805 nucleotides of DNA from assembly GCF_003334765.1 (NCBI RefSeq), contig NZ_QOWT01000096.1; one strand, given 5' to 3'. Of the stretch, positions 1 to 805 are shown one piece after another. The position numbers and the translations under genes were made by a program. Source of the DNA: Escherichia coli (GTDB taxonomy: Bacteria > Pseudomonadota > Gammaproteobacteria > Enterobacterales > Enterobacteriaceae). Positions within the stretch are counted from its first letter, which is position 1. Every line of letters begins with the position of its first letter. The notes beneath the pieces were generated by a model. The model made no database searches. It was not told the origin of the DNA and saw only the letters and a list, made by a program, of their open reading frames with translations.

Positions 1-805
1 CTGAAACGTATTTTGCCTGGTAACGGGCGTCATCAAGTGCATTATGGCGCTCACCTTCGAATGGAATAGCCGTTCTGGCATCGAAGTCTATGGCTTTCCC
101 CAGCTCAACGATTGTGCGTACATCGCGATCGTTGTAGTAACGCCACGGGCAGGGGATCCCCTGCCGTTCGTATGAACGGCGCAAAATCGTGTTGTCGAAG
201 TTGGCTCCATTTCCCCAAACCTGAACAAAAAATTCACCGGAGTTTTCGTCGATAAATTCCCGCAATTGTAACAGTGCATCATCTAACGGGATTTCATCGG
301 TCATAATGGCAGATTGCGCTTCGCGTGATTGCTTAAGCCACCATTTAATGGTGTCCCGATCAATGACTCCGCCAGCAGTTTCCAGATCGATAGTCTTACT
401 AAATTCCGGTCCCATATCTCCGGTTTGCGGATCGAAAAATATTGCACCTATTGAGATGATCGGGGCATCAGGATTTTTTCCCATGGTTTCAAGGTCGATC
501 ATTAGATGGTCACACGTCCTGCTGGTGGATGTGATTTCTTGATGACCGTTCACCTTAATTGAGTGATCTGCCGTCTCGCCAGTTTCATTATCGCTATCGT
601 GATGCTGATTGCCGCCAGTGTTCTCCTTGTGTGGATGTTCAGCGCCTTCCATTTCCTCCGGATCATCTTCCTGAACTTCAACCTGATACTCTTCATCGAA
701 TGTTTCTTGGTATGTTGCGTCGCCCATCACCGCGCCACAATCAGGGCAGTTGCCGCCGCCGGTCTGACCGCAGGCGGTGCAGACTTTTTCCACTTCCTGT
801 TGCGC
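1..805 (-). CDS. Internal fragment (5' and 3' ends outside window) of a large prophage-type nuclease: RecE-like Cys4 zinc ribbon and acidic linker followed by a DEDDh (DnaQ-like) 3'-5' exonuclease domain
   Basis: Reverse-complement translation in the frame where + 803..805 is codon 1 gives 268 consecutive sense codons with no stop: [268 protein letters not shown]. It contains recognisable exonuclease motifs and an enterobacterial-looking codon pattern. The other five frames are broken by stops or give only the short ORFs in the track. Confidence 0.88.
148..165. repeat. Perfect 18-bp palindrome GGCAGGGGATCCCCTGCC (9-bp arms, no spacer, GATC at the centre)
   Basis: Read directly: + 148..165 equals its own reverse complement; position 147/166 breaks the symmetry. 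Lies inside the CDS (codons for R-Q-G-I-P-C-P). Confidence 0.95.
163..180. repeat. Inverted repeat / hairpin: 7-bp stem GCCGTTC (163..169) and GAACGGC (174..180) with a 4-nt loop GTAT
   Basis: Read directly; overlaps the 3 terminal bases of the 18-bp palindrome, giving a 33-bp block (148..180) of dense dyad symmetry. Confidence 0.85.
566..721 (-). other. Acidic, His-containing low-complexity linker between the zinc ribbon and the exonuclease domain
   Basis: Translation [53 protein letters not shown] is dominated by D/E with several H, G and N and has no hydrophobic core pattern, consistent with a flexible interdomain linker. Confidence 0.6.
737..781 (-). other. Cys4 zinc-ribbon-like motif (CxxC-x7-CxxC)
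   Basis: Translation [19 protein letters not shown]: Cys codons at + 779..781, 770..772, 746..748 and 737..739. Glycine-rich spacer typical of small zinc ribbons. Confidence 0.6.

Follow-up and report, generated by a model that had tools for sequence, protein, structure and literature searches.

Several described nucleases of phages and prophages bear on the subject of this report, an 805-nucleotide stretch of Escherichia coli DNA (assembly GCF_003334765.1, contig NZ_QOWT01000096.1), which codes for part of what is very probably a large prophage exonuclease; the whole stretch is referred to here as the window. The nearest characterised relatives are two DNA exonucleases, DexA of phage T4 and its E. 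coli homologue EcD. The structure of DexA, a 3'-5' DNA exonuclease, has been solved (Kang et al., NAR 2025, PMC12153337), and its residues Trp152 and Asp169 have been proposed to recognise 5-hydroxymethylcytosine (5hmC) (PMC12153337). EcD cleaves DNA containing 5hmC and not unmodified DNA, and the loss of the aspartate equivalent to Asp90 of DexA (Ala78 in EcD) is said to prevent both tetramer formation and the cleavage of unmodified DNA (PMC12153337). A further group, the TONDOs, is made up of ISG20-like DEDDh enzymes with auxiliary domains, which trim the 3' ends of RNA phages and block these phages (PMC13344964, a 2026 preprint).

Two genes of E. coli K-12 prophages are also relevant. RecE (exodeoxyribonuclease VIII), encoded in the Rac prophage, is the 5'-3' double-stranded DNA exonuclease partner of RecT; its N-terminal part is without known function, although full-length RecE improves linear-linear recombination (PMC11611040, a review). 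In the Qin prophage, the DicA-repressed dicB promoter transcribes dicB, ydfD and the pseudogenes ydfE, insD7 and intQ (PMC11430063, a 2024 preprint). As described below, the gene in the window is the intact counterpart of ydfE.

Identity and extent of the gene

The window was assigned to codons 544-811 of the 824 codons of a large exonuclease gene of Qin/Rac-like lambdoid E. coli prophages; for this identity, together with the domain anatomy described below, we estimate a probability of about 0.85. Sequences with 99.8% identity to the window are found in E. coli chromosomes as well as in prophages, either induced or annotated. In strain 510016 (locus L001), it corresponds to positions 6001-6805 of the locus and lies within an annotated coding sequence (4372..6846) for an 824-amino acid 'exonuclease', the two DNAs differing at two bases, with one amino-acid change as a result. 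There, the reading frame extends for 543 codons upstream of window position 805, back to an ATG, and for 13 codons downstream of window position 1 (VIWQKLIPSQADF), which are followed by a TAA stop codon. Coding sequences of 824 or 813 codons are annotated in the same frame in both 99.8%-identical records (L001 and L002), in agreement with an earlier note, made from the letters of the window alone, according to which the gene is longer than 268 codons and continues past both edges. The stop codon encountered 13 codons past the edge of the window belongs to the gene itself. RefSeq names the product 'exonuclease' or '3'-5' exonuclease'. The gene was thus already known, as an annotated and very common prophage gene, and the frame missing from the list of open reading frames (ORFs) of the window is real but ordinary.

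This frame, positions 805..2 on the minus strand, translates into 268 sense codons with 0 stop codons; the remaining five frames contain 8, 25, 11, 8 and 12 stop codons. From the base composition, this frame would stay open over 268 codons with a probability of about 9e-7, and by arithmetic, the value for an open frame in any of the six is about 4e-5; a fully open frame, in whichever frame, was present in one of 20,000 mononucleotide shuffles. The frame contains in-frame ATG codons, yet these have no upstream stop codon, so that no ORF boundary falls within the window, and it is unlisted because the ORF lister reports only frames that close inside the window.

For a comparison of copies, the window was aligned with seven further copies (L001, L002 and L007-L011), giving eight sequences with nucleotide identities of 90-100%. 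In all seven copies besides the window (90-99.8% identical to it), the frame is open and free of insertions and deletions. Variable columns occur at codon positions 1, 2 and 3 in numbers of 39, 36 and 76, respectively, and the median pairwise ratio of non-synonymous to synonymous substitution rates (dN/dS) is 0.33 in the 805..2 frame, compared to 0.49-1.34 in the other five. A chance open frame is ruled out by the odds from base composition and shuffling, combined with this selection at the codon level. The description of the whole window as a single open minus-strand frame of 268 codons, unlikely to have arisen by chance, therefore stands; tblastn and protein-search matches also fall in the 805..2 frame, and no homology was found in another one.

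Matches to the gene are present in 4722 of 5426 complete E. coli genomes (about 87%), at a median of two places per genome and a maximum of eight, the latter in O121 and O157 strains. In the databases, the majority of its protein entries bear the mark 'partial'. Such records would fit assemblies that break inside a repeated prophage gene, and the shortness of the window and its position inside the gene may have the same cause.

The exonuclease domain

Window residues 100-268 (positions 2..508, minus strand) form a DEDDh 3'-5' exonuclease domain of the Rv2179c-like family PF16473, as seen with Pfam, AlphaFold2 (AF2) and Foldseek; the last 13 residues of the protein are outside the window. PF16473 matches the window with an E-value of 2.3e-66 over model positions 2-174 of 177, and the full-length protein with an E-value of 5.2e-67 over positions 2-177 of 177. 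A weaker RNase_T match is also present in the window. In the Pfam scan of the full-length protein, nothing significant was found besides PF16473; a newer Pfam release has the families YdfE_N and YdfE_C for the large N-terminal scaffold.

The three exonuclease motifs were located by alignment, all on the minus strand. Exo I (positions 488..496) has the sequence D-L-E and contributes Asp104 and Glu106 (Asp647 and Glu649 of the full-length protein), Exo II (194..217, WGNGANFD) contains the catalytic Asp204 (Asp747), and Exo III (29..46, HNALDD) contains His254 and Asp259 (His797 and Asp802), the histidine being the residue that defines the DEDDh subtype. These five residues are invariant across the window protein, Sb30 of Salmonella phage ST64B, gp71 of phage 9NA and DexA of phage T2, and their conservation across 80 diverse sequences is at least 90%. 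Among the eight copies, 7% of the residue columns are variable in window residues 100-268, compared to 51% in residues 1-83. The DEDDh active site is intact and under strong purifying selection.

In the AF2 model of the window segment, residues 100-275 form an alpha/beta domain, with predicted local distance difference test (pLDDT) values of 90-98, and are predicted to adopt the RNase H-like DnaQ fold. When the domain model was submitted to Foldseek, T4 DexA was returned first (PDB entries 8KEL and 8KEN, E-value 1.8e-12), followed by RNase T, oligoribonuclease/REXO2 (Orn), Cap18 and 3'hExo, and all of the top 50 matches are DEDDh enzymes. DexA was also the sole match in a single-sequence search of the PDB. 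The domain would be a Mg2+-dependent 3'-5' exonuclease, and it most likely acts on DNA, since DNA is the substrate of its closest characterised relatives, T4 DexA and E. coli EcD.

DexA of T4 or T2 is the best structural match, with all DEDDh catalytic residues aligned, although it is only 28% identical to the window domain and is a standalone protein of 227 amino acids with extra loops. The equivalent of its Asp90 is an aspartate, window residue 176, while Ser87 is replaced by proline, in a region where the alignment is moderately reliable. Trp152 of DexA corresponds to Tyr224; Asp169 corresponds to Asp240 in one alignment, the region being aligned differently in another. Neither temperature-dependent nor 5hmC-related behaviour can be deduced for the window protein.

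EcD, an HREX protein, has a homologous DEDDh domain and is likewise encoded by an E. coli mobile element. An EcD-like protein was recovered from viral contigs of IMG/VR (L015, L024, L025, L028, L031 and L039) by means of the primers printed in PMC12153337. It contains 189 amino acids (MIDTET...PFLNI), with alanine at position 78, and compared with its locus, the printed reverse primer contains one additional base, an A. The gene is situated in a P2-like element, between the region of a GpA-type replication gene and a Dam methylase gene, which EcD adjoins. Where EcD has Ala78, the window protein has an aspartate. With aspartate at the DexA Asp90/EcD Ala78 position and tyrosine at that of Trp152, the window protein is, by the criteria of PMC12153337 itself and as far as the alignments go, not an EcD-type enzyme.

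The closest lineage of the domain is that of Sb30 of phage ST64B, with 56.9% identity. The gene for Sb30 occupies the same place as the window gene, immediately upstream of xis-int, but Sb30 is a standalone protein of 189 amino acids, without the scaffold, four-cysteine (Cys4) module and linker. At about positions 497..520 of the window (minus strand), the sequence shows an in-frame ATG (Met102) with an AGGA about 14 nucleotides upstream; this ATG, a possible internal start for the DEDDh domain alone, is placed where standalone homologues such as Sb30 start.

The RecE-shared segment and the mosaic joint

Window residues 1-83 (positions 557..805, minus strand) form a segment shared with RecE, as delimited by BLASTP, blastn and a match to positions 521-602 of the RecE profile. 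It contains a Cys4 zinc-ribbon-like module of 28 residues (698..781), the cysteine codons of which are at 779-781, 770-772, 746-748 and 737-739. This is followed by an acidic linker of 47 residues (557..697), which contains 17 aspartate and glutamate residues, one lysine or arginine and five histidines, and is predicted to be disordered. In the AF2 model of the window segment, residues 1-30 form a small beta-module with short strands (pLDDT 72-79), while residues 32-82 are disordered (pLDDT below 50).

In nucleotide comparisons, K-12 recE matches window positions 565..803 with 85.4% identity, and sb30 of ST64B matches positions 1..502 with 65%. In between lies a mosaic joint of 62 nucleotides (503..564), bounded by the ends of the blastn matches, in which neither the recE lineage nor that of the standalone exonucleases matches at the DNA level. 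The protein alignment with RecE diverges after ...ETGE(T/V)AD. As judged from these alignments, the joint is the switch point from which RecE-type genes continue into a PD-(D/E)XK domain and the window gene into the DEDDh domain.

The four cysteines are conserved in seven of the eight copies and in RecE; in L009 (NZ_CM128586.1), a tyrosine replaces the second one (C12Y). Matches of the module to Pfam zinc-ribbon families are weak (E-values of 0.2-0.7), and the zinc-ribbon label is putative. The same 28-residue module ends a Dam-type methyltransferase, with 68% identity and a pairwise E-value of 3e-12; this protein is encoded in the P2-like element of contig L024 (5187..6167, minus strand), next to the EcD-like gene, and the module makes up its C-terminal residues 294-321. 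A tblastn search against phages located the module in 42 phage records, which include RecE/exonuclease-type genes, dam of Enterobacter phage phiT5282H, a Klebsiella element and Aeromonas phage proteins. When the module was searched as a 40-residue query in an index of 5.8 billion proteins, only one tiny identical fragment was retrieved, a meagre result owed to the word index being unsuited to short queries. To judge from this distribution, the Cys4 appears to be a small portable unit attached to DNA enzymes of phages.

Genomic context and modular relatives

In seven loci, the genes are found in the order cI/dicA-type repressor, ydfA/B/C, dicB, ydfD, the window gene, xis and int, with ompW, potC or rspB as the integration site of the prophage. 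The gene is the last of the repressor-controlled early-left operon ydfABC-dicF-dicB-ydfD-gene, directly upstream of xis-int; dicF is a small RNA encoded in the same operon of K-12. In a promoter and terminator scan of the operon, nothing notable was found between the gene and xis.

YdfE of the K-12 Qin prophage (pseudogene b1577, L004) is encoded at the same position after dicB-ydfD and corresponds to the first 254 residues of the full-length protein, with 87% identity. This homology concerns the full-length gene in the near-identical records, as the N-terminus is outside the window. In K-12, ydfE is cut by IS2 (IS2E) after about 254 residues, which leaves this strain without the Cys4 module, the linker and the DEDDh domain.

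When the full-length protein was used as the query of an exhaustive search, 11,777 cluster representatives were retrieved at E<=1e-3, most of them standalone DEDDh proteins of about 180-200 amino acids. The scaffold that precedes the domain in the window gene comprises about 540 residues, and AF2 predicts three confident units in it (residues 1-206, 247-340 and 390-435); a structural search with the AF2 scaffold model gave no informative match.

Among the long homologues, the modules are shuffled. In one of them (P0124), an N-terminus that is 100% identical to residues 1-277 of K-12 RecE (PF06630) is joined to the DEDDh domain (98% identity). Its locus (L040, 5001..7418) is Rac-like, with the order SieB-KilR-YdaE-fusion-xis-like-int and no recT. 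The Rac-like element has lost recT, and its DEDDh-xis-int block seems to travel as a whole. Two other homologues (P0158 and P0138) consist of a YdfE-type scaffold and a PD-(D/E)XK domain, while in five more (P0134, P0141, P0147, P0170 and P0203) the scaffold is followed by a different tail of about 330 amino acids.

The Pfam Rad52_Rad22 matches of this tail are weak only, and a sequence-profile search of the PDB with the tail alignment gave nothing meaningful, but its homologues (E-values of about 1e-59) include standalone proteins that contain PF04098 or are named as Rad52/Rad22 family members. A locus with the Rad52-like tail (L041, 5001..7337) has the order KilR, a weak match to Gam, the fusion, Sipho_Gp157, Exc and Int. 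PHROGs 2489 and 7838 label the tail 'exonuclease'; for what would be an annealase fusion, this is probably a carried-over name. As a consequence of the shuffling, the scaffold is combined with one of two exonuclease types or a probable annealase, in the loci analysed always in the lambdoid recombination-gene slot.

Proposed role and alternative explanations

The gene product may function in DNA-end processing during lytic growth, from the recombination slot of the phage. We favour this role only tentatively, giving it somewhat less than even odds; it is suggested by fusions, located between kil/gam-type genes and xis, in which the same scaffold carries the nuclease of RecE or a Rad52-like annealase. 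The DEDDh domain is attached to the large scaffold via the disordered acidic linker and the Cys4 module, and scaffold and module probably serve to tether or target it. A classical RecET-like mechanism is argued against by the lack of a neighbouring annealase and by the predicted polarity of the enzyme, which is the 'wrong' one for making 3' tails. A more specific idea, which we consider rather improbable, is that the chimera is a 3'-5' alternative to RecE, of reversed polarity, on the same scaffold but without a linked annealase, maybe an HREX- or TONDO-like exclusion or defence nuclease directed at superinfecting phages, and that the Cys4 is a portable targeting peptide. If so, these 28 residues would bring phage enzymes of the RecE, Dam and window types to a common host or DNA partner.

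The gene shares much with recE. Both occupy the same early-left slot before xis-int, the central region with the Cys4 and the acidic linker is common to both proteins, and phage records name the gene 'exodeoxyribonuclease VIII', which would make it the 5'-3' partner of RecT. BLASTP aligns residues 262-626 of the full-length protein with residues 278-591 of RecE, the match being very close from residue ~478 and then ending at RecE residue 591, and there is a partial match to the NCBIfam model NF007259. However, the score of this match is 277 bits, far below the curated cut-off of 1269, and its extent is limited to profile positions 440-602 of 877. Both Pfam domains of K-12 RecE, the N-terminal PF06630 and the PD-(D/E)XK domain PF12684 (residues 615-850), are absent from the full-length window protein in the Pfam scan, and the shared part, which does not define enzymatic identity, is outside the solved nuclease domain of RecE (PDB entry 3H4R, residues 605-866). 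In the true recE loci L003 and L005, recT directly follows recE, whereas it is adjacent in none of the eight DEDDh-type loci (L001, L002, L007-L011 and L040). RecE thus has a PF06630 N-terminus and a 5'-3' PD-(D/E)XK nuclease end and is followed by recT, while the window gene has a different N-terminus, a 3'-5' DEDDh nuclease end and no recT. The low NF007259 score, the missing PF12684 and PF06630 and the absence of an adjacent recT refute membership of the RecE family, to which we assign next to no probability. A DEDDh-type copy is labelled 'exodeoxyribonuclease VIII' in ON470612.1, and another long Cys4-bearing gene 'exonuclease VII' in NC_029120.1; records with such labels also include ON470583.1 and OV696610.1. 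On this gene, both names are wrong, because the catalytic domain belongs to a different superfamily, with the opposite predicted polarity. It is also unlikely, though less so, that the family is functional and the window's own copy a disrupted pseudogene. Damaged copies are frequent, with K-12 ydfE truncated by IS2, the L010 copy annotated as frameshifted and the C12Y substitution in L009, and the PHROG and protein databases contain many fragments of the gene. The window, however, contains no stop codon or frameshift, and it differs at two positions (one amino acid) from intact annotated copies; from these near-identical records we infer that the copy to which the window belongs is intact. The frameshifted copy is that of O157:H7 strain AC-5 (NZ_CP169546.1).

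Of the alternatives, an anti-phage defence or exclusion nuclease encoded by the prophage, resembling EcD or the TONDO family, is the one to be taken most seriously, although we regard it as doubtful. The domain is 36.7% identical to the EcD-like protein over 177 amino acids (E-value 1e-31). The gene is placed in the dicB operon and is present in up to eight copies per E. coli genome, and DicB reportedly protects against some phages. Moreover, EcD protects against T4 (PMC12153337), and defence against MS2 and Qbeta is provided by prophage- and plasmid-encoded DEDDh enzymes whose auxiliary domains vary (PMC13344964). On the other side, no PADLOC model matches the full-length protein, and the position regarded as diagnostic in PMC12153337 (Asp90 in DexA, Ala78 in EcD) is an aspartate, with tyrosine in place of DexA Trp152. 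EcD is a standalone protein of 189 amino acids in a P2-like element, not an 824-amino acid fusion in a lambdoid early operon, and the TONDO candidate set was limited to proteins of fewer than 500 amino acids (PMC13344964). The K-12 operon is repressed by the CI-like DicA, which suits expression in the lytic cycle better than constitutive defence. An enzyme acting on RNA, such as an exoribonuclease or nanoRNase for the turnover of transcripts or small RNAs in phage development, seems less probable still. It is suggested by the title of the Pfam family ('3'-5' exoribonuclease Rv2179c-like', after Rv2179c of Mycobacterium tuberculosis), by the presence of RNase T, oligoribonuclease/REXO2 and 3'hExo among the structural neighbours of the domain and by the small RNA dicF sharing the operon. 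Yet the nearest solved structure, also the only match in the single-sequence PDB search, is that of the DNA exonuclease DexA, DNA is also the substrate of EcD, the closest bacterial relative tested, and the domains found fused to the scaffold belong to DNA recombination.

In the literature on ydfE and 'Rv2179c-like' proteins, nothing functional was found on this protein. The kinship with RecE, Rad52-like annealases, DexA and EcD and the presence in about 87% of the genomes make it a reasonable candidate for biochemical and phage-challenge study.

Other features of the window

A scan of the window with Rfam (E<=1) yielded no RNA family, direct and inverted repeats were searched for and none was found, and nothing stands out in the composition profile. 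In short windows, real genes will be missed by an ORF lister that leaves out frames reaching beyond the edges. Here, as the earlier note had pointed out, only ORFs closed within the window are listed, among them a minus-strand ORF at positions 88..282 (64 amino acids) and an antisense, plus-strand ORF at 306..542 (78 amino acids). The note held both to be less plausible than the long frame, and the comparison of copies bears this out, as each is broken in some of the copies and selection is seen solely in the 805..2 frame. The ORF at 88..282 is spurious, with an internal stop codon in L008 and a median dN/dS of 1.09 in its frame; that at 306..542 is spurious too, its ATG being lost in L008 and its frame interrupted by an internal stop codon in L010.

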